A stretch of DNA of 64,000 bases from Promethearchaeia archaeon (GTDB taxonomy: Archaea > Asgardarchaeota > Lokiarchaeia > Sigyniarchaeales > SOKP01), in assembly GCA_046483985.1 (NCBI GenBank), contig JAWOCD010000005.1, positions 30,862 to 94,861 on the forward strand, written 5' to 3'. The notes beneath the pieces were generated by a model that was not told the origin of the DNA, did no database searches, and saw only the letters and a program-made list of their open reading frames with translations. Positions 32,551 through 54,525 of this stretch are shown here, piece after piece. Each line of letters starts with the position of its first letter. Within the stretch, counting starts at the first letter, position 1. Both the position numbers and the translations under genes were made by a program.

Positions 32551-34770
32551 TTAGACGAACAGTGACTTTTCTTCATCGGAACGATGAGAAGAGACTCGAC
32601 GTTGTTTCAATTTATCTTGATAATCTTCGTACCATTGAACAATATCATCGTTAATACTGGCGCTAACGAATTCTCTTGCTCGCTCAAAATGATTCATATT
32701 TACCGTTCGTGCTCTAATATTATCTCGTAATGCGATCATCGCTGCTTCCCGGCAGAATGTTTCAATATCTGCTCCTGAAAATCCTTCGGTCATTTTTATT
32801 ACTTTATCTACCTCTACATCTGTGGAGAGTGGCATTGGTTCAGCAAATATTTCAAAAATCTCTTCTCTTTCTTCCTTATTGGGAGCAGGCACCAATAATA
32901 TTCGATCAATCCGACCGGGACGAATCAGAGCTGGATCAAGGATATCTGGCCGGTTAGTTGCGGCGATAACTACAATATCCTTATTGACTTCTAATCCATC
33001 TAATTCTGTGAGAAATTGAGATAATACTTTTTCGGTCACACCCGAGTCTGAAGTATGCCTTCCACGGCTTGGTGCAAGAGAGTCAAATTCGTCAAAGAAA
33101 ATAATACATGGTGCTGCCATTTTTGCTTTTCTAAATACTTCCCGAATTGCCTTTTCACTTTCACCTACCCATTTCGAGAGGAGCTCTGGTCCTTTGATTG
33201 AGATGAAATTAGCTTTACTTTCAGTTGCAACCGCGCGTGCTAAGAGTGTCTTGCCGCACCCTGGTGGACCATATAGAAGGATCCCTTTAGGTGGGGTAAT
33301 ACCCATGCGAGAAAATACTTTCGTATTTGAAATAGGCCAATTTACCGATTCAATTAATTTTTGTTTTAAATCGTCTAGTCCTCCTACTTCATCCCACGAG
33401 ACATTCGGAATTTCGACAAATACCTCCCGAATTCCTGAGGGGAGAACTTCCTTTAAAGCTTCCTGAAAGTCTTCCCTCGAAACTTGAATTTGTTCCAATA
33501 ATTCTGGATCTATTATCTCGGATTCCAAATTAATTTCCGGAAGATACCTACGTAATGCTGACATCGCCGCTTCACGAGATACTGCCGAAATATCTGCCCC
33601 TACAAAACCATGTGTTATTTTTGCATACTCTTTAAGGGAGATTTCCTTATCCAAGGGCATATTTCTGGTATGGATCTGAAAAATCTCTAATCTCCCTTTT
33701 TCGTCTGGTACTTTTATTTCAATCTCCCGATCAAATCTCCCAGGGCGGCGTAAAGCAGGATCTAAACTATTAGGACGGTTTGTGGCCCCGATGACTATAA
33801 CTCTTCCTCTACTATGTAATCCGTCCATTAACGCTAATAATTGTGCGACCACGCGACGTTCCACTTCGCCAGTTACATTTTCCCTTTTTGGAGCGATTGC
33901 ATCAATCTCATCAATAAAAATTATCGAAGGGCTCTTTTCCTCGGCCTCGACAAAGATATTTCTTAATTTCTTTTCAGATTCTCCATAAAATTTGCTCATA
34001 ACTTCTGGGCCATTAATTGAAATAAAATGAGCTTCGCTTTCATTGGCTACAGCTTTTGCTAACAAGGTCTTTCCACATCCTGGGGGCCCTCTTAAAAGTA
34101 CACCTTTCGGTGGGTCGATTCCAAGTCTCTTAAATAATGAAGGATGACGGAGAGGTAATTCAACCATTTCCCGAACACGCTGTATTTCTTTATCTAGTCC
34201 ACCAACATCTTCATAGGTGATATAAGTACCCTCATCGATACCTTCCGAGATTCTTTCACTGATATGAAGGTTAGTCTCACTTGTTATAATACAGACGCCT
34301 TTTGGTCTTAAATTCGTTACTTTAAAGGTTAGCTCTCTACTAATCCCAATTGAAATAATAATATAATCGTCCATAGTTATGGGTAATTTGTTTAATCTTC
34401 TCTTGACAAATGATTCAAATTTAGAATTAGTTTTGATAGTAATATTAGAAGCCGAAAGTACTACTGTATCAGCTTCCATTTTTTTAACCTTTTTTACTTC
34501 CACGGTATCATCTATACTAGTCCCAGTATTTTTTCTTAATCGAGAATCAATGCGTGCTATTTGAAGACCGTTATCTTGTGGGTAACTTGGCCATGCAATT
34601 CCAGCGCTTTTTTTTTTGCCTTCTATTGCAATTATGTCGCCTGTTTCAATATTTAATTTTTCCATTGTTTCTTGATCTATTCGGATGATATTCCGTCCAA
34701 CGTCACGCTTTTTCGCTTTTTGAATTCTTAAGGTAACGCTTCTATTGCTATCATCATTATCTGGCGTCAT
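32551..34770 (-). CDS. cdc48: AAA+ ATPase Cdc48/VCP/VAT
   Basis: It has an N-domain ([33 protein letters not shown]) and two AAA modules, each with GPPGCGKT. The Walker B motifs are FIDEID and FFDEFD. Confidence 0.95.
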
Positions 34771-44046: not shown

Positions 44047-46137
44047 TTGATTAATGGAGTGGTCGTTCCCGCACTAACCTTTTTTAATAATGAATATCGA
44101 TTAATTAATGAGTTAAATTCACTTTTATACAGACATATTGTTTTAAATGGGGCAAATGGGGTATTTTTATTCGGAACCACCGGTGAAGGGATGATGTTTA
44201 CCGATAAAATTGAACAAAAAATAAATTATATAAACTTAACAATCGAGAGTGAACAAAAAGTTCCCGTTCTTCTTGGAGTTTGGGGAAACGATGAAGATAA
44301 GATAATTGATGAGATTAAAGAACTAGCAATTCAATTTCCTGCATTAAATTTCGTCATTATTCCTCCAATGAATGAAAAAAAATCTATTGCAGATTTAAAA
44401 TCTTATTTTGAAACCATTTTAGGTTCATTAGATATAAAAAATCCGATCTATCTTTATAATAATCCGGATCTTTTTGCTGGAAACAATATAAATCAAAATA
44501 TTCTTAGGTGGCTTTTGACTTTTTCGAATTTAGCGGGTATAATAGACTCCTCGCGAAAAATCAAGACGTATAAAGGTTGTATAGAATTTTTAAGTGAGGA
44601 ATTTAGTGTTTACTGTGGACGGGAGAGTAATTTTTCCAATTTTCTACAACTTATCCCACAAGAAAAACGAAAATATGCTGGATTAGCCCCGAGTATTGGA
44701 AATCTATCAAATATATCAAAAAAGTTATATCAAGCGGCATTAGAAAAAGAGCCGTTAAAACTAGTACAGTTGCAAGAAGAACTTAATGATTTTCGAGATA
44801 AAATCTATGATATTAAAGTAAGGAAAGGTAAACAACAAAGGGGGCTAAAATATGCATTTTACAATCTTTATGAAGACATTATTAGTACACCTGAACAAAA
44901 AGCTTTAACAGTTGCACCCAGAAACGAGCGTATTTTAGAAGATACGGTAAAAGACAGAATCACCGCTACCGTTCAATTTTTATTCAATCAATCTTATATT
45001 GATCGATTTTATAAAATCGGGAATCATTTATATGATTTCACGACTCTTGCTTCAAAGATTTCCAAAATCGATAAATTACAAGAACTCGGTGAACTAAAAA
45101 AAATAAAGGGTCCTTATGGAGGGAGAATAAACAAAATTTATCGAATAAAATTGGGTATCAATTCATATGTGCTCAGAGCACGAACTTCTCAAGCGTTTCG
45201 TTATGAAGGCTTAATAAAAGAAAAAGTATTATTCCCCTTTTTGGATAGCTCTTTACATAAAGAATTACCAGATCTTGGAAATCGGGTTGATAAGATCTGT
45301 GGTGAGAAAAAAGGCTCTTATACATTTGACGAAGACTCTCCATCTGTTATACCTGTTTACGATTTAATATATTATGACGAAACAAAGGAATTATTCCCGC
45401 ATATATATTCCATTCATGAATATCTGCCGGGAAAGACATTATACTCTTTGCTGGAAGATTATAAAATTCTTAAAGAAAGCAGGCTTTTCAAGAATTTTTT
45501 GGATCTCTTTGAAAACATAGGTAAAATTCTTGGAAAGATTCACGAGATCTCTTTCAACGGATTTTATTACAAAATTGATGAAATTGGACATCAAGCTAAA
45601 CAATTAGAGTGGGGAGAACTATTTCAAAAGCAATTAGAAGAGGAACTTTCCCAATTAAATGAAGAGAAATTAGAAATCATCCCGGACATCAAGCAATATT
45701 TCGAAGAACATTCTTCTTTAATTAAAGAGAATGAAGAAGCAGTATTGATTCATAATGATTTTCAAGGACAAAATATAATCGTTAAAGAAGAAGAATCAAC
45801 TGGAGCATTTCGTTTAAATGGACTTATTGATTTTGATAATTGGAGAGTGGGTGTGCGAGCTCAAGATTTTGTTAAGATAAATTTTTGGACATTAAATCCG
45901 CTAAATGACCCTCAATTGAAAGAGGCCTTTTATAAGGGATATCAAAACCGATCTGGTATTTTAATAAGTGAAACTTTTGAGAAAAAAATTGAGATCTATT
46001 CTCTGCTTTGGTTCTTAAAAGTATATAATTTTGAAATGGATAAAATGCAGAAAGGGAAGCAAGGTAAAATTATAGATAAACGATTTCCTCCCCCAGAACA
46101 ATACATAAATGAAATAAAAAAAATATTGACCCCTTAA
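44047..46137 (+). CDS. Fusion protein: DapA/DHDPS-like TIM-barrel domain plus APH/ChoK-type phosphotransferase domain
   Basis: The N-terminal part has VVPALTFF...FGTTGEG...YLYNNP. The C-terminal part has YVLRA, EYLPGKTLY, LIHNDFQGQNIIV (HxDxxxxN) and GLIDFDNW. The start is TTG. Confidence 0.6.
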   Translation: MINGVVVPALTFFNNEYRLINELNSLLYRHIVLNGANGVFLFGTTGEGMMFTDKIEQKINYINLTIESEQKVPVLLGVWGNDEDKIIDEIKELAIQFPALNFVIIPPMNEKKSIADLKSYFETILGSLDIKNPIYLYNNPDLFAGNNINQNILRWLLTFSNLAGIIDSSRKIKTYKGCIEFLSEEFSVYCGRESNFSNFLQLIPQEKRKYAGLAPSIGNLSNISKKLYQAALEKEPLKLVQLQEELNDFRDKIYDIKVRKGKQQRGLKYAFYNLYEDIISTPEQKALTVAPRNERILEDTVKDRITATVQFLFNQSYIDRFYKIGNHLYDFTTLASKISKIDKLQELGELKKIKGPYGGRINKIYRIKLGINSYVLRARTSQAFRYEGLIKEKVLFPFLDSSLHKELPDLGNRVDKICGEKKGSYTFDEDSPSVIPVYDLIYYDETKELFPHIYSIHEYLPGKTLYSLLEDYKILKESRLFKNFLDLFENIGKILGKIHEISFNGFYYKIDEIGHQAKQLEWGELFQKQLEEELSQLNEEKLEIIPDIKQYFEEHSSLIKENEEAVLIHNDFQGQNIIVKEEESTGAFRLNGLIDFDNWRVGVRAQDFVKINFWTLNPLNDPQLKEAFYKGYQNRSGILISETFEKKIEIYSLLWFLKVYNFEMDKMQKGKQGKIIDKRFPPPEQYINEIKKILTP

Positions 46138-46514
46138 TTAGGTTCGTATAGTACTGCAACCATTAACGTAAATTCCCACGGGGCGTTTGCCTTGTCATAA
46201 ACCAGCGTTTGAATATCTTCTGATGCTTCTCTCTTTGTATGTTTATAAAAGACTTCCCATGCAGTCTGTCCTATTATCTGCGGATCGTTTAAAACATCTG
46301 AAAATTTTTTATTTATGCCCGCATAATAAATAGCTTTATTATCAATAATTTGTTTTAACTCTGCCAGATCCATAAGTTTTGCTGTTTTTACAATATTTTC
46401 GGTAATTTGCCCAAAATAATCACTTAATTTCTTAGAAACCTCATTGGGAGCACCTTCTTTGCCATCATACAGAAAAACTATACCAATTGCTTCCATTTTT
46501 TTCTCTTGACTCAT
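46134..46514 (-). CDS. Uncharacterized approximately 120 aa protein, paralog family member 1
   Basis: By eye it is about 45% identical to the product of 46750-47115. Shared elements are GIVFL, TEN-V, IID-K-IY, AWE-F-KHT, EDI and APW-FTL. Confidence 0.55.
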   Translation of the reverse strand: MSQEKKMEAIGIVFLYDGKEGAPNEVSKKLSDYFGQITENIVKTAKLMDLAELKQIIDNKAIYYAGINKKFSDVLNDPQIIGQTAWEVFYKHTKREASEDIQTLVYDKANAPWEFTLMVAVLYEPN

Positions 46515-46749: not shown

Positions 46750-47115
46750 TTATTTATATACAACACAAGCACATAGAGTAAAGTTCCATGGTGCATCTTC
46801 TCCCTTATAGATTAAACAACGGATATCCTCATCAGCCTCTATATTTGTATGTTTTTTAAATAGCTCCCAAGCCAAATCTCCGAGTTTATCCCCGTTTTCG
46901 ATGACTTCATTGAATCTTTTTTTAACAGCTCCCCAATAGATCTTTTTCTCATCGATTATCTTCTTAAGATCAACTAATTCCATTAACCCCTCACGAACCA
47001 AGTTTTCTGTTACCCCAGAAAAATATTTTTTAAATTCTTTAGATACATCTTCTGGTTTACCCTCTTCCATGTTAAATAAGAAGACTATACCCTGTGCTTT
47101 TCCTAAATCAGACAT
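46750..47115 (-). CDS. Uncharacterized approximately 120 aa protein, paralog family member 2
   Basis: See 46134-46514. Its 5' half and promoter are duplicated at 48463-48711. Confidence 0.55.
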   Translation of the reverse strand: MSDLGKAQGIVFLFNMEEGKPEDVSKEFKKYFSGVTENLVREGLMELVDLKKIIDEKKIYWGAVKKRFNEVIENGDKLGDLAWELFKKHTNIEADEDIRCLIYKGEDAPWNFTLCACVVYK

Positions 47116-47203
47116 TTAAATCCTATTAAAAAGTTGTTGTTTAATGATTTAATTATAATATATGATCTAATTATAGTATTTATTATTATACCGTTCATCA
47201 TAA
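46958..47203. repeat. Direct repeat copy A (about 245 bp; 5' half of paralog 2 plus its upstream region)
   Basis: It aligns colinearly with 48463-48711 at roughly 75-80% identity by eye. One shared string is TAAATCAGACAT...TAATTATAATATATGAT...ATAGTATTTATTATTATAC. Confidence 0.75.
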
Positions 47204-47361
47204 TTTCGGCAGGGAAATTCACACATTTAAAATCATTTAATAATACATTTCTGTTAAGTTATAAGGAACCATGGTTCACAGAAAAACTTGTAATTACCAG
47301 CAAAAAGCGGATAAAGAAGCGTCAGAATGGATTAAAACTAGAAATCGATTTGTAGAAAAAT

Positions 47362-48414
47362 TTAATCCAGCAATTTTTCTACTACTTTAGTTGCCTTTCT
47401 TGCATTTTCGGCATAACCGTCTGCCCCTACTTTTTTCCAAAGATCGGGAATCATGTTAAAGGCTTTCCCTCCCACCAGTATCTTTATATCCGAACACTCG
47501 GAAATTCGTATCTTATCAACCAATTGTTTAACTAAATAGATATGATTTATTAAACTACTTGAAATGGCAAGTAAATCCGCGTCTTGCTTTTTTATCATAT
47601 TGAGAATCGAATTACGAGGTGCATTTGCCCCAATATAAAAAACTTTCCAGCCTTCATATTCCAAAAGATTAGAAATCATCTTAATTCCTAATTCATGCTG
47701 TTCTCTTTCAATACATGTAGAGATAATGGTTTTCTTGTCCTTTTCTGGCTTCGATTCGATATTTTTGAATTGACTAATAATTGTATCGGAGATTACGGTG
47801 CTTAAGTGTTCTCGGGCGACAGAGATTTGGTTAATTTCCCAGAGCCTACCGACTTCATATTGAGCGGGTTGAATAACATTCAAATAGATATCTACTAATG
47901 GCACCCCTTCTTGTTCTAATTTTTCGATGATTAAAAACGCCTTTTCTCTATATCCCTTAAGGATGAAGTCTAAATAATCTTGTGCTTCTTTATTATAAGG
48001 ATTATCCATCTTAATAAAACTCAGCGGGACTTTAAGTTCCTCTTGAAAGATATTATTTATTCCAGAAAAGAAGCGATTTAAAATGTCGTGAATTGTTTTT
48101 TCTTTGAATTCTAAATTTAAGATATTTTTGGTCTCTTCCAATGTTATTAAAACTAATTCTCCCGTCAATCCCCGATTTTCTAATACATTTTTTATCCACT
48201 TAACATATTTTTTAAATAATTCGGGTTGATCTAAAAGAATAGCATGGGAAAGATATTCCAAATGGTATGTAAGGTCTTGAAGGGATTGTTGTTTTTTTTT
48301 TTCACCATAGATATTTTCGAGTGCCGATACTCTTTCAAAGATCCTTTCTAAGATGGATTTTGCTAATTTTTCCTTTTGATTTAATAAAATTTCTCCAAAT
48401 TCTTGCTTATCCAT
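47362..48414 (-). CDS. Cobalamin-binding protein with CarH-type photoreceptor signature and an N-terminal helical domain of unknown function
   Basis: It has the B12-binding_2 helix bundle with W-x9-EH (LWEINQISVAREH). The Rossmann B12 domain has E-x-H-x-x-G (EQHELG) 48 residues after the Trp. No MerR or other DNA-binding domain is present. Confidence 0.75.
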   Translation of the reverse strand: MDKQEFGEILLNQKEKLAKSILERIFERVSALENIYGEKKKQQSLQDLTYHLEYLSHAILLDQPELFKKYVKWIKNVLENRGLTGELVLITLEETKNILNLEFKEKTIHDILNRFFSGINNIFQEELKVPLSFIKMDNPYNKEAQDYLDFILKGYREKAFLIIEKLEQEGVPLVDIYLNVIQPAQYEVGRLWEINQISVAREHLSTVISDTIISQFKNIESKPEKDKKTIISTCIEREQHELGIKMISNLLEYEGWKVFYIGANAPRNSILNMIKKQDADLLAISSSLINHIYLVKQLVDKIRISECSDIKILVGGKAFNMIPDLWKKVGADGYAENARKATKVVEKLLD

Positions 48415-48442
48415 TTATAATCAACAACTACCTGTTTACAAT

Positions 48443-48622
48443 TTAAATGAGCATTAAGTGTGTGATCTTCTTTAGATCAACTAATTCCATTAAACCCATA
48501 CGAACCACGTTTTTTCCTCCCCCCGAGAAATATTCTTTAAACTTTTCTGACAGATCTGAGGGTTTTTCCTCCTCCATATTAAACAAGAAAACTGTATCTT
48601 TTGCTTTCCCTAAATCAGACAT
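48443..48622 (-). pseudogene. Truncated third copy of the approximately 120 aa paralog family (N-terminal approximately 53 codons only)
   Basis: It reads MSDLGKAKDTVFLFNMEEEKPSDLSEKFKEYFSGGGKNVVRMGLMELVDLKKI, then diverges and stops. It is about 70% identical to the N-terminus of 46750-47115. Confidence 0.5.
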
Positions 48623-48711
48623 CTAAAATTCTATTGAAATATTATTGTTTCATTATCTAATTATAATATATGATTCAATCATAGTATTTATTATTATACT
48701 GTTAGAAAAAA
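48463..48711. repeat. Direct repeat copy B (partner of 46958-47203)
   Basis: See copy A. The two copies bracket the cobalamin-binding gene. Confidence 0.75.
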
Positions 48712-48873
48712 TCTGGGCATATCGGGACAAGCCAGACCTCGTTACTTTGGAAAAAATTTGACATTAAAAAAAATTTTTAATGGTTAAAGGTTCATTTAAA
48801 GTGATTAAAGGATTTTATATATTTATCATGAAGTTAAGATCGCTTAAGTGTATTAAAAATTTCAAGAGAAAAA

Positions 48874-53118: not shown

Positions 53119-54525
53119 TTAATAAAAGTGAAGAGATAGATCCACCTCTTCGGACGGAAACTGAGTTAATCTACTTGAACTTATTACATCTGGTTCTGCT
53201 TCCAAATAAGAGGCCAGATTCTCGAAATTAATCCCCCCCGATACCTCAATTAAGACTTTATTACGCAAACCGTGCTCATTAAGTAGATTAATGGCATTTT
53301 TTACCTCTTCTGGATCCATATTATCCAGCATAATTATATCTGCTCCAATTTTTGCAGCTGTTAATAAATTCTCTACTTTCTCAATTTCAATTTCGATTTT
53401 TTTTGTAAAACTCGCTTTTTCTTTAACAGCTCTTAAAAGCACTTCCACATCACCATTATAATAACGTAAATGTGTATCTTTTAAAAGAATCATATCATCT
53501 AAGGAAAACCGATGGGGATCACCACCCCCGATTTCAATTGCTGCTTTTTCGAAGATGCGAAGTCCAGGGAGAGTTTTTCGTGTTCCTGCAATTTTTGTTT
53601 TTTTCTTCAATTTTTGAGTAAGATTTACATATTTTCTCGTAGTTGACGAGATAGCACTCATATGCGTAAGAAGATTTAATCCAACACGTTCTATTAAAAG
53701 AATATCATGAGCATTTCCGGTTAAGTCAACGATATGATCTCCTTTTTCTATAAAATCACCGTCCCGGTTTTGAAGATCTGATTCTACATTACACATATCG
53801 CATAGAACATTAAAAAATGTTAAACCAGAGATATAACCTTTACTTTTTGCGATAATTTTTGCTTTCACCCTTTCCTCTTCCGGAATAAATGCGGAGCTTA
53901 CATCCTTAAATTGGCAATCTTCTTTCAAATATTCTCTAAGTTTTTCTTTAATCAAGATGATATTATAGTTTTTATCAACAGATTCCTTTACTTCTTTTGG
54001 GAGATTTTCAATTATATGGAGTTTGGTTTCTGGAGTAATTAAACAAACACCCTTCGGTTCTAGGTTCGTCACTTTAAATTTCTGTTTTCTACCTTTCCCC
54101 CTCGAAATAATGAGATTATCATCCAAGGTTATTGGAGTATTCTGGGAATTCTTTTTAATGAGGGATTTAACTTGGGAATTACGTTTTATATCGAAATTTA
54201 AAGCAGTAAGACTAACAGATTTGGCATCTTTTGCTTTAGCCTTTCTAATTCTAACAATGTCTCCTTTTTTAGTTTTCGTATTTTTTCTAAGACGGGAATC
54301 AATCCGAGCAATTTGTAGCCCCTTATCGTCTGGATAATTTGGCCAAACTATTCCCGCACTTTTCTTTTTCCCTTTAATTACAACGATGTCTCCTGTTTCC
54401 AGATTTAAGTTTTTCATTATTTTTTCATCTATTCGAATGATATTTCGACCCTCATCTCGATCTTTAGCGCTTTGAACTTCTAAGATATAAATTTTTTCAT
54501 TATGGTTATTATTGTTTTTCTTCAT
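53119..54525 (-). CDS. nadC: Fusion: Cdc48/VAT N-domain (double-psi barrel plus beta-clam) joined to nicotinate-nucleotide pyrophosphorylase (quinolinate phosphoribosyltransferase)
   Basis: Residues about 12-175 read [58 protein letters not shown]...FKVTNLEPKGVCLITPETKLHI. Residues about 190-468 carry the NadC motifs LLIERVGLNLL, AGTRKTLPGLR, GGGDPHRFSLDDMILLKDTH, IMLDNM and EVSGGI. Confidence 0.8.
   Translation of the reverse strand: MKKNNNNHNEKIYILEVQSAKDRDEGRNIIRIDEKIMKNLNLETGDIVVIKGKKKSAGIVWPNYPDDKGLQIARIDSRLRKNTKTKKGDIVRIRKAKAKDAKSVSLTALNFDIKRNSQVKSLIKKNSQNTPITLDDNLIISRGKGRKQKFKVTNLEPKGVCLITPETKLHIIENLPKEVKESVDKNYNIILIKEKLREYLKEDCQFKDVSSAFIPEEERVKAKIIAKSKGYISGLTFFNVLCDMCNVESDLQNRDGDFIEKGDHIVDLTGNAHDILLIERVGLNLLTHMSAISSTTRKYVNLTQKLKKKTKIAGTRKTLPGLRIFEKAAIEIGGGDPHRFSLDDMILLKDTHLRYYNGDVEVLLRAVKEKASFTKKIEIEIEKVENLLTAAKIGADIIMLDNMDPEEVKNAINLLNEHGLRNKVLIEVSGGINFENLASYLEAEPDVISSSRLTQFPSEEVDLSLHFY

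Follow-up and report, generated by a model that had tools for sequence, protein, structure and literature searches.

The window analysed here (the whole 64,000-nt stretch of DNA) contains a gene for a B12-binding protein that is bracketed on the minus strand by two direct repeats. Both repeats carry the upstream region and the beginning of a small gene, par2. This arrangement raises the question of how the repeat arose and whether the upstream copy has become the promoter of the B12 gene, as was proposed in an earlier interpretation made from the letters alone (hereafter the sequence-only reading). In our analysis the locus is best explained, with a probability of roughly 0.75, by a lineage-specific partial duplication of a par2 segment to a rearrangement junction, which would have left a scar with a decaying relic.

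The repeat and the genes it involves

The repeat was recovered almost exactly where the sequence-only reading had placed it, using a repeat search, MAFFT and blastn. Copies A and B lie on the same strand, that is, as a direct repeat (Table 1), with 79-81% identity over 255 aligned columns, one indel and blastn E-values of ~1e-58 to 4e-60. The repeat search returned two matched stretches (46958-47120 with 48465-48627, 163 nt, 80%; 47118-47211 with 48626-48719, 94 nt, 80%), which form a single repeat because a lone 1-nt indel splits them. Aligned in full with MAFFT, the copies differ by 53 mismatches or gaps in 255 columns (79.2% identity). With copy A as blastn query against the whole 64-kb window, copy B was the sole match (80.8% over 239 nt, E 3.7e-60), the next having an E-value of 0.045. 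The A/B repeat has no counterpart of its kind in the window: a self-comparison by BLASTN gave just one further DNA repeat (34247-34735 and 54001-54487, 68%).

Several details of the sequence-only reading hold as well. Copy B still has its start codon (ATG, 48622) together with 53 homologous codons, close to the number proposed, in a 59-aa ORF; the homology ends at 48465, 50 nt ahead of the B12 ATG at 48414; and the minus-strand order of repeat promoter, truncated paralogue, B12 gene, repeat promoter, intact par2 and par1 is correct. The term "beheaded", used there for the paralogue, is wrong, as copy B is truncated at its 3' end, with the head (the ATG) kept and the tail lost. The upstream region of par1 lies outside the repeat.

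Table 1. Features of the repeat locus, in window coordinates.
Feature	Position	Strand	Remarks
par1	46134..46514	-	126 aa; an older paralogue sharing 47% identity with par2; present in L001 too
par2	46750..47115	-	intact 121-aa gene, MFO8017207.1; parent of the duplicated segment
Repeat copy A	46958..47211	-	96 nt of upstream region and codons 1-53 of intact par2
Conserved upstream blocks, copy A	47150..47186	-	ATAATAAATACTATAAT (47186-47170) and ATCATATATTATAATTA (47166-47150); candidate TATA/regulatory elements (inferred)
Three T5 runs after the B12 stop	47282..47360	-	47360-47356, 47306-47302 and 47286-47282; within 80 nt
Relic, last 19 codons of 607-aa gene	47301..47357	+	in L001 the gene lies between the B12 gene and par2, in L013 next to par
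Photoglobin + B12-binding_2 + B12-binding protein	47362..48414	-	350 aa, MFO8017208.1
Non-repeat junction	48415..48464	-	50 nt, from the end of homology to the B12 ATG
TATA-like octamer TTTAAATT	48440..48447	-	-33..-26 of the B12 ATG; shares bases with the stop codon that ends the relic ORF
3'-truncated par2 relic	48443..48622	-	59-codon ORF; MAG annotation hypothetical protein MFO8017209.1
Repeat copy B	48465..48719	-	same upstream region and 53 homologous codons; 1-nt indel just upstream of the ATG
Conserved upstream blocks, copy B	48658..48694	-	16/17 and 17/17 identical to copy A

The flanked gene encodes a protein with two domains above Pfam thresholds (PF02607, 44.8 bits against a cut-off of 23; PF02310, 67.4 bits against 32.1) and with the CarH-type motifs W192-x9-E202-H203 and lower-ligand H240. 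W192, E202-H203 and H240-E241-x-G243, which follows the pattern (D/E)xHxxG, are invariant in 15/15 homologues. Counted along the alignment with an inferred numbering offset of +6, W192 and E202-H203 align at Trp61 and Glu71-His72 of SasPcob (PMC10979010). Residues 36-100 align to the globin domain of SasPcob (domain E 1e-3), and the Pfam Phycobilisome model scores 17.5 bits on the protein, under its cut-off of 22.2. D47 and W73 are also invariant (15/15 homologues) and, by alignment count with the inferred +6 offset, align at Asp270 and Trp296 of SasPcob, in which the biliverdin contacts include Asp and Trp (Zhang et al. 2024, PMC10979010). The gene product is thus a predicted photocobilin-like protein that joins a photoglobin to a CarH-type B12-binding part. 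Assignment as a methyltransferase corrinoid protein (MtbC/MtmC/MttC/MtaC) was rejected, as the NCBIfam equivalog cut-offs were missed, MtbC coming closest with 61.8 against 350 bits; the pyl_corrinoid model gave 56.4 bits against a cut-off of 215. The nearest of the other homologues that we found share no more than 40% identity with this protein; those that are named come from bacteria.

par2 and par1 belong to a small family observed in Lokiarchaeia alone. Searched with a profile, 1.84 billion representatives yielded just 17 proteins, two metagenome scans found no additional relatives, and the family had no match in Pfam or NCBIfam. The AlphaFold model of the small protein is confident (pLDDT 82); a Foldseek search of it against the PDB gave nothing significant, the best match being a Pth2-like fold (E 0.09, TM 0.43-0.45). 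The functional link between sensor and small proteins suggested by the sequence-only reading finds no comparative support: the small gene occurs at seven other Lokiarchaeial loci with no B12 gene within 8 kb at any of them, and in L001, the closest relative contig, an opposite-strand 607-aa gene lies between the B12 gene and par2.

Age and decay of the second copy

L001 was the sole sister contig compared and comes from an independent assembly of another sample. Its locus reads B12 gene, opposite-strand 607-aa gene, par2, TrmO, BNR, par1 and DHDPS-APH gene, and it lacks the repeat, with no piece of par lying upstream of its B12 gene. Copy B pairs with copy A and not with the L001 orthologue (quartet sites AB|OX 6 versus 1 and 0), and the third-position distance is 0.30 between A and B and 0.43 between A and L001. 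Since L001 has both genes without the repeat, and since A is closest to B, the duplication is younger than the neighbourhood of the B12 gene and par2. Judged by these comparisons, it took place later, in this lineage only, at a breakpoint of synteny. The proposal that the repeat is the scar of the sensor's arrival is contradicted on both counts, by the repeat-free L001 locus with its B12 gene near par2 and by the grouping of copy B with copy A. Gene conversion between copies A and B could give a duplication a falsely young appearance.

Further traces of rearrangement are found around the B12 gene. The relic of the 607-aa gene in the window points to a deletion in this lineage, and the order in L013, 607-aa gene on the minus strand, par and BNR, agrees with that of L001. 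The left flank here consists of an inositol monophosphatase family gene and a 360-aa ORF; in L001 it consists of Metallophos and DZR.

After its 53 homologous codons, the ORF in copy B runs on for 6 unrelated ones before it stops; it is truncated relative to every full-length family member, the homology covering residues 1-53 of proteins of 117-133 aa. With L001 as outgroup, changes at codon positions 1/2/3 number 9/7/6 on the copy B branch and 1/0/5 on the par2 branch, and lineage-specific amino-acid changes number 13 and 0, respectively. Five family-invariant residues are replaced in the relic (G9D, G19E, V24L, T36G and E37K). dN/dS is 0.027 between par2 and its L001 orthologue and 0.185 between par2 and copy B. 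The substitution patterns show that the coding part of copy B is a pseudogene relic that has lost protein-level constraint and decays neutrally, and that the parent par2 by the same measures remains under strong purifying selection. The sequence-only reading was right to see in the repeat a duplication scar and in copy B a truncated par2 paralogue carrying the upstream region of par2.

The frame of the relic is still open, its ATG is retained and the MAG annotates a protein there, so one may ask whether the 59-aa ORF, descended from the family's N-terminal part, has a function as a short protein or as a regulatory upstream ORF. We consider this extremely unlikely. The even spread of substitutions over codon positions and the five changed invariant residues speak against it, as do the absence from copy B of the Shine-Dalgarno-like AGGA of par2, the lack of three of the five predicted beta-strands of the family fold, and the protein cluster, which has a single member among ~15 billion proteins. 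The open frame was rejected as a sign of function, because a frame would survive 22 random substitutions with a chance expectation of 22-31%. Insertion of the B12 segment (47212-48464) as a cassette into par2 at codon 53, with the repeats as a target duplication, agrees with the geometry of direct repeats around a single-gene insert of 1253 nt; in that case the sensor gene could be removed by recombination of one repeat with the other, leaving par2 whole again. The homologues outside the lineage (at most 40% identical, named ones bacterial) also suit it, since they imply that the B12 gene was acquired. But the L001 B12 gene is already beside par2 without repeats, the A-B pair is closer than par2 and its L001 orthologue, which places the duplication after the neighbourhood, and the supposed insert includes the relic of the locus's own 607-aa gene. 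No transposase or integrase was found, nor terminal inverted repeats at the insert ends, and 254 nt is far beyond known target-site duplication lengths; a cassette insertion is therefore very improbable. An assembly or binning artefact, in which the repeat or the placement of the B12 gene reflects a MAG chimera, has in its favour that the window is part of a metagenome-assembled genome, but it is hardly credible: copies at 80% identity are too different for assembly collapse or duplication, the independent L001 assembly has the same neighbours for the B12 gene (par2, par1 and the DHDPS-APH gene), and G+C is uniform over the region (0.31).

Under the preferred reading, a partial duplication, a segment of at least 254 nt, made up of the par2 upstream region and the first 53 codons, would have been duplicated into a rearrangement junction that lies 50 nt upstream of the photoglobin-B12 gene, which already resided in the locus. 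The same junction would mark the end of synteny with the sister contig. What the window shows would then be a compacted ancestral locus: it no longer has the genes once lying between its inositol-monophosphatase-family gene and the B12 gene, and the 607-aa gene and the TrmO/BNR genes are likewise missing. Two genomes are insufficient to reconstruct the order of deletion and duplication or the molecular mechanism.

Transcription of the B12 gene

As a result of such a duplication, the B12 gene would now lie downstream of a second set of par2 upstream elements, with no oligo-T between. The two AT-rich upstream blocks are partly common to the L001 orthologue, and their promoter role is inferred; as a wider regulon motif they had no other good match in the 64 kb. 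The better-conserved 45-nt upstream core shows no significant excess of conservation over the rest of the repeat (sliding-window permutation, P 0.42), and the longest identical run in the repeat gives no signal either (P 0.36). Since the core does not significantly exceed the decaying coding part in conservation, nothing points to selection maintaining the copy B promoter.

When the 50-nt junction was compared with the sequence upstream of the L001 B12 orthologue, no similarity could be detected. Within it, TTTAAATT is a candidate independent promoter of the B12 gene, which would give a leaderless or short-leader transcript. The octamer falls in one of the two commonest distance bins for TATA-like matches, the -35..-31 bin being occupied in 7/47 window genes, and lies inside 48415-48462, the interval in which, by the sequence-only reading's own account, an independent sensor promoter without read-through would refute its proposal. 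No Shine-Dalgarno-like motif is present near the B12 ATG, so that a leaderless transcript from the proximal box fits better than a 207-nt leader.

Nothing terminator-like separates the copied upstream region from the B12 gene: the sequence between 48705 and 48415 is free of T5+ runs, although 26% of random 291-nt stretches are also T5-free. The T5 runs 3' of the B12 stop are terminator-like, resembling archaeal oligo-T, and would divide the B12 gene from par2. We also considered loss of a T5 run in copy B as selection for read-through and rejected it, because the intragenic T5 is a par2-specific gain and L001 and L013 resemble copy B. A structured leader or riboswitch was not detected (no Rfam match at E<=1; fold z-score +0.93).

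Given the copied upstream elements and the lack of oligo-T, transcription could cross the 207-nt relic and reach the B12 gene, and we put read-through from the copied promoter somewhat below even odds. Transcription from the gene's own proximal TATA-like box appears at least as likely, and both may occur. A stronger proposal takes the copied par2 promoter as the main promoter of the B12 gene, with sensor and par2 co-regulated and the relic ORF serving only as leader. It draws on the near identity of the blocks between the copies and their partial presence in L001, on the contrast between an oligo-T-free path to the B12 ATG and the three T5 runs after the stop, and on the rearrangement itself, which took away the ancestral upstream flank of the B12 gene and left no similarity to the region upstream in L001. 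Against it stand the lack of excess conservation in the promoter core, the unremarkable T5-free stretch, the TATA-like box at the usual distance and a leader with neither special RNA structure nor Rfam family. We therefore hold this proposal to be possible and the less probable course. That a horizontally acquired, bacterial-type B12 and bilin photoreceptor gene has been rewired by a local duplication, and is now driven by the duplicated promoter of a Lokiarchaeia-only small-protein gene, is doubtful on the present evidence; if true, such rewiring would tie light sensing to the small-protein family and show the domestication of a foreign sensor in an archaeal genome.

Comparison with known systems

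The repeat is an ordinary rearrangement scar, a textbook by-product of rearrangement that says little on function. Its second copy resembles the partial gene duplicates and relics found at junctions: like them, it derives in truncated form from a neighbouring gene, retains nucleotide similarity without protein constraint, is absent from a sister genome and is positioned at a synteny breakpoint. Unlike most relics, copy B includes the whole upstream region of its parent and lies in sense orientation 50 nt before an intact gene, and for this reason it could act as a promoter. Its value is modest: it is a dated, clean case of locus remodelling in an Asgard (Lokiarchaeial) genome, which, set against the sister contig, reveals three deletions, one partial duplication and a sensor gene that was acquired.

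As in promoter capture, a duplicated control region lies upstream of a gene of foreign origin, on the same strand and with no terminator-like tract between; unlike it, the downstream gene has a plausible TATA box of its own and the duplicated region carries no selection signal. Should read-through prove true, the locus would be a natural case of promoter capture bringing a foreign gene under archaeal regulation. Direct repeats around an inserted-looking gene also recall the target-site duplications of mobile elements. Those measure 2-15 nt, whereas the repeats here span 254 nt, are 20% diverged and come without transposase, integrase or terminal inverted repeats, and the sister genome shows the B12 gene in the locus before the repeat.

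The flanked gene is best compared with the photocobilins (SasPcob, 8J2W/8J2X; AbPcob, 8J2Y; PMC10979010), with which it has in common the B12-binding_2 domain, the B12-binding domain, the Wx9EH motif and the lower-ligand His. The bilin-binding domain of SasPcob aligns with its globin-like domain, and the biliverdin-contacting Asp and Trp are conserved. The photoglobin precedes the B12 domains, the reverse of SasPcob, and this order is among those listed for photoglobin-B12 modules (Schneider et al. 2022, PMC8717448). The gene further differs from photocobilins in lacking an evident signalling output domain or partner and in its host, an Asgard archaeon. As a candidate photocobilin-like protein in such a host, it is a more interesting object than the repeat that flanks it.

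A partial duplication beside the B12-sensor gene

A repeat search in the window returned two abutting direct-repeat families, 46958-47120 / 48465-48627 and 47118-47211 / 48626-48719, each 80% identical; since their offsets are 1507 and 1508 nt, they constitute one single repeat broken by one 1-nt indel. In a global alignment, copy A (46958-47211, minus strand) and copy B (48465-48719, minus strand) were 79.2% identical, with 53 differences in 255 columns. The homology spans 96 nt 5' of the ATG and 53 codons of the small gene par2, and ends 50 nt short of the ATG of the B12 gene. In blastn, copy B was the sole match to copy A in the whole 64-kb window (E 3.7e-60; runner-up E 0.045), and self-comparison revealed only one other DNA-level repeat. 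The repeat claimed by the sequence-only reading is thus real: the BLASTN self-comparison it had proposed recovers it, and the minus-strand gene order it gave agrees with the gene coordinates. The term "beheaded" for the paralog was misplaced, as copy B retains the head and has lost its 3' part.

Table. Features of the locus in minus-strand order, followed by other features of the window
Feature	Position	Strand	Remark
Upstream region (copy B)			
59-codon ORF	48622..48443	-	
B12-binding gene	48414..47362	-	
Upstream region (copy A)			
par2	47115..46750	-	121-aa gene
par1	46514..46134	-	126-aa paralogue
Relic of 607-aa gene C-terminus	47301-47357	+	last 19 codons; 11/19 identical, E 3e-4
Second repeat pair	34247-34735 and 54001-54487		68% identical, ~490 nt; presumably two paralogous genes

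The par2 protein is identical to a hypothetical protein from a Promethearchaeia (Lokiarchaeial, Asgard) MAG, in which par2, the B12 gene and the relic ORF are, in this order, MFO8017207-09 on a 116.6-kb contig. On the other side, par1 converges with a plus-strand gene (44047-46137; stop codons overlapping by 4 nt) for a 696-aa fusion of a DHDPS-like N-terminal domain and an APH/choline-kinase-like phosphotransferase domain, kept at ~72% identity in the sister contig L001.

Over the 53 shared codons, par2 and its L001 orthologue are 82% identical in nucleotides and 92% in amino acids (dN/dS 0.027; 5/0/23 differences at codon positions 1/2/3), and par2 and copy B 79% and 74% (dN/dS 0.185; 10/7/16). 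Polarised by L001, copy B has accumulated 9/7/6 changes and par2 1/0/5, with 13 and 0 lineage-specific amino-acid changes, respectively. Copy B carries replacements at family-invariant residues (G9D, G19E, V24L, T36G, E37K), and the Shine-Dalgarno-like AGGA of par2 is gone. Its ORF is still open, which is unremarkable given a chance expectation of 22-31% by simulation. By this pattern of substitution, the coding part of copy B is a pseudogene relic.

Origin of the duplication

In L001, the closest relative contig (par2 89% identical), the order is Metallophos(-), B12 gene (two pieces, 165 + 188 aa), 607-aa gene(-), par2, TrmO_N, BNR, par1, DHDPS-APH(-); a third relative, L013, also has 607(-), par, BNR. 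The 607-aa gene of L001 encodes a membrane protein, and Pfam Polysacc_synt is present in a more distant homologue from L005. Its relic survives in the window, with window-L001 DNA homology extending to 47280, so that the window locus is a compacted derivative: judged by synteny, the 607-aa gene (save the relic) and the TrmO and BNR genes were deleted relative to the L001 order. At the left flank, an inositol-monophosphatase-family gene stands in the window versus Metallophos in L001, and copy B sits exactly on this synteny break. In a distant relative (L010), par has an inositol-monophosphatase homologue 2.3 kb upstream, and the genes that intervene there are missing from the window, an arrangement that fits a deletion having brought this gene beside the cluster.

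The orthologous B12 gene (L001:1484-2559) is called there as two genes whose frames overlap at an A-run, CGAAAAAAGC, at about 1948-1957. The split looks like a 1-nt homopolymer frameshift, from a pseudogene or an assembly error, and not like a natural photoglobin/B12 gene split.

A quartet analysis of the two copies with L001 and L013 gave six informative sites that group copy A with copy B, against 1 and 0 for the alternatives. At third positions, the distances are 0.30 (A-B), 0.43 (A-L001) and 0.45 (B-L001), and the singletons number 5 for branch A and 6 for branch B. Sites and distances place the duplication in the window lineage, after the split from L001; gene conversion could bias this estimate, yet the repeat is still absent in L001, where no par fragment lies upstream of the B12 gene (only this sister contig was compared). 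The proposal of a duplication or insertion scar therefore holds for duplication and fails on timing for insertion of the sensor gene, as the B12 gene adjoined par2 in L001 already, without the repeat. Insertion of a mobile element or cassette with target duplication is disfavoured for the same reason, and also by repeats 254 nt long, an insert with neither recombinase nor terminal inverted repeats, and the presence within it of a remnant of the 607-aa gene, which belongs to the locus itself. A simple tandem duplication would not produce the observed layout. Two other routes would lead to it: templated patching where a deletion was joined, or a tandem duplication of larger extent with a subsequent deletion.

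Promoter of the B12 gene

As a genome feature, a partial-duplication repeat is commonplace. Such a scar could supply a promoter. The host being archaeal (Promethearchaeia), promoters are of the archaeal TATA/BRE type. The upstream region of copy B could drive the B12 gene by read-through: the two best-conserved blocks, ATAATAAATACTATRAT and ATCATATATTATAATTA, agree between the copies at 16/17 and 17/17 positions, are partly common to L001 and are not found elsewhere in the window, and the stretch from these blocks to the B12 ATG is free of T5+ runs, with three T5 runs 3' of the stop. However, conservation of the upstream core does not significantly exceed that of the decaying coding part (P 0.42), and a T5-free stretch of 291 nt is expected in 26% of random stretches. 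In the leader, neither an Rfam match nor an unusual fold was detected, which counts against read-through or is neutral. The 50-nt junction itself contains a TATA-like candidate, TTTAAATT, at -33..-26 of the B12 ATG; in a survey of 47 long window ORFs, TATA-like matches peak in -50..-31 (7 each in bins -45..-41 and -35..-31). A Shine-Dalgarno-like motif, present in about a quarter of the surveyed genes, is absent near the B12 ATG, in itself against read-through or neutral. Taken with the proximal box, this makes leaderless transcription from a nearby promoter no less plausible than read-through from copy B.

The small proteins and the photocobilin-like protein

The par proteins have no Pfam or NCBIfam match, and among 1.84 billion representative proteins a profile search found only 17 members, every named or located one Lokiarchaeial. 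Invariant residues include TEN36-38, H89 and APW108-110. The AlphaFold model is confident (pLDDT 82), and nothing in the PDB matches it significantly (best E 0.09). Loci L005-L012 carry par as a single copy, unlike the par1 and par2 of the window. A protein of an 816-nt ENA contig (L014, P0145) is par-like in its first 42 residues and then unrelated, with a faint Peptidase_S41 match; this may be another instance of a 5' piece of par joined to sequence elsewhere, or else the short contig is a chimera. The suggested functional link between sensor and small proteins finds no comparative support: seven more distant Lokiarchaeial loci have one par gene each and no B12 gene within 8 kb.

A photocobilin-like gene in an Asgard archaeon is more noteworthy than the repeat flanking it. 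The label "B12 sensor" is fair, as among solved structures its best relatives are two photocobilins, SasPcob (8J2W/8J2X, E 7e-27) and AbPcob (8J2Y), CarH-type motifs are kept, and scores against models of methyltransferase corrinoid proteins fall far under the cut-offs. Outside the window lineage (its own record apart), no homologue found exceeds 40% identity and those with a named source are bacterial, which suggests horizontal acquisition. Across 15 homologues, W192-x9-E202-H203, H240, D47 and W73 are invariant; in alignment, the first two fall on the adenosyl-pocket and lower-ligand positions of CarH and photocobilins. By sequence, the product is a photoglobin and CarH-type B12-binding protein. 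In SasPcob, biliverdin is contacted by one Asp and one Trp (PMC10979010), with which D47 and W73 align; these equivalences, like those of W192 and E202-H203, were counted by hand, with an inferred +6 offset from chain index to published residue numbers. The N-terminal domain aligns with the C-terminal globin domain of SasPcob, so the domain order is permuted: the window protein has the photoglobin first and the B12 domains after, opposite to SasPcob (8J2W), and photoglobins fused before or after B12 domains have already been described (PMC8717448).
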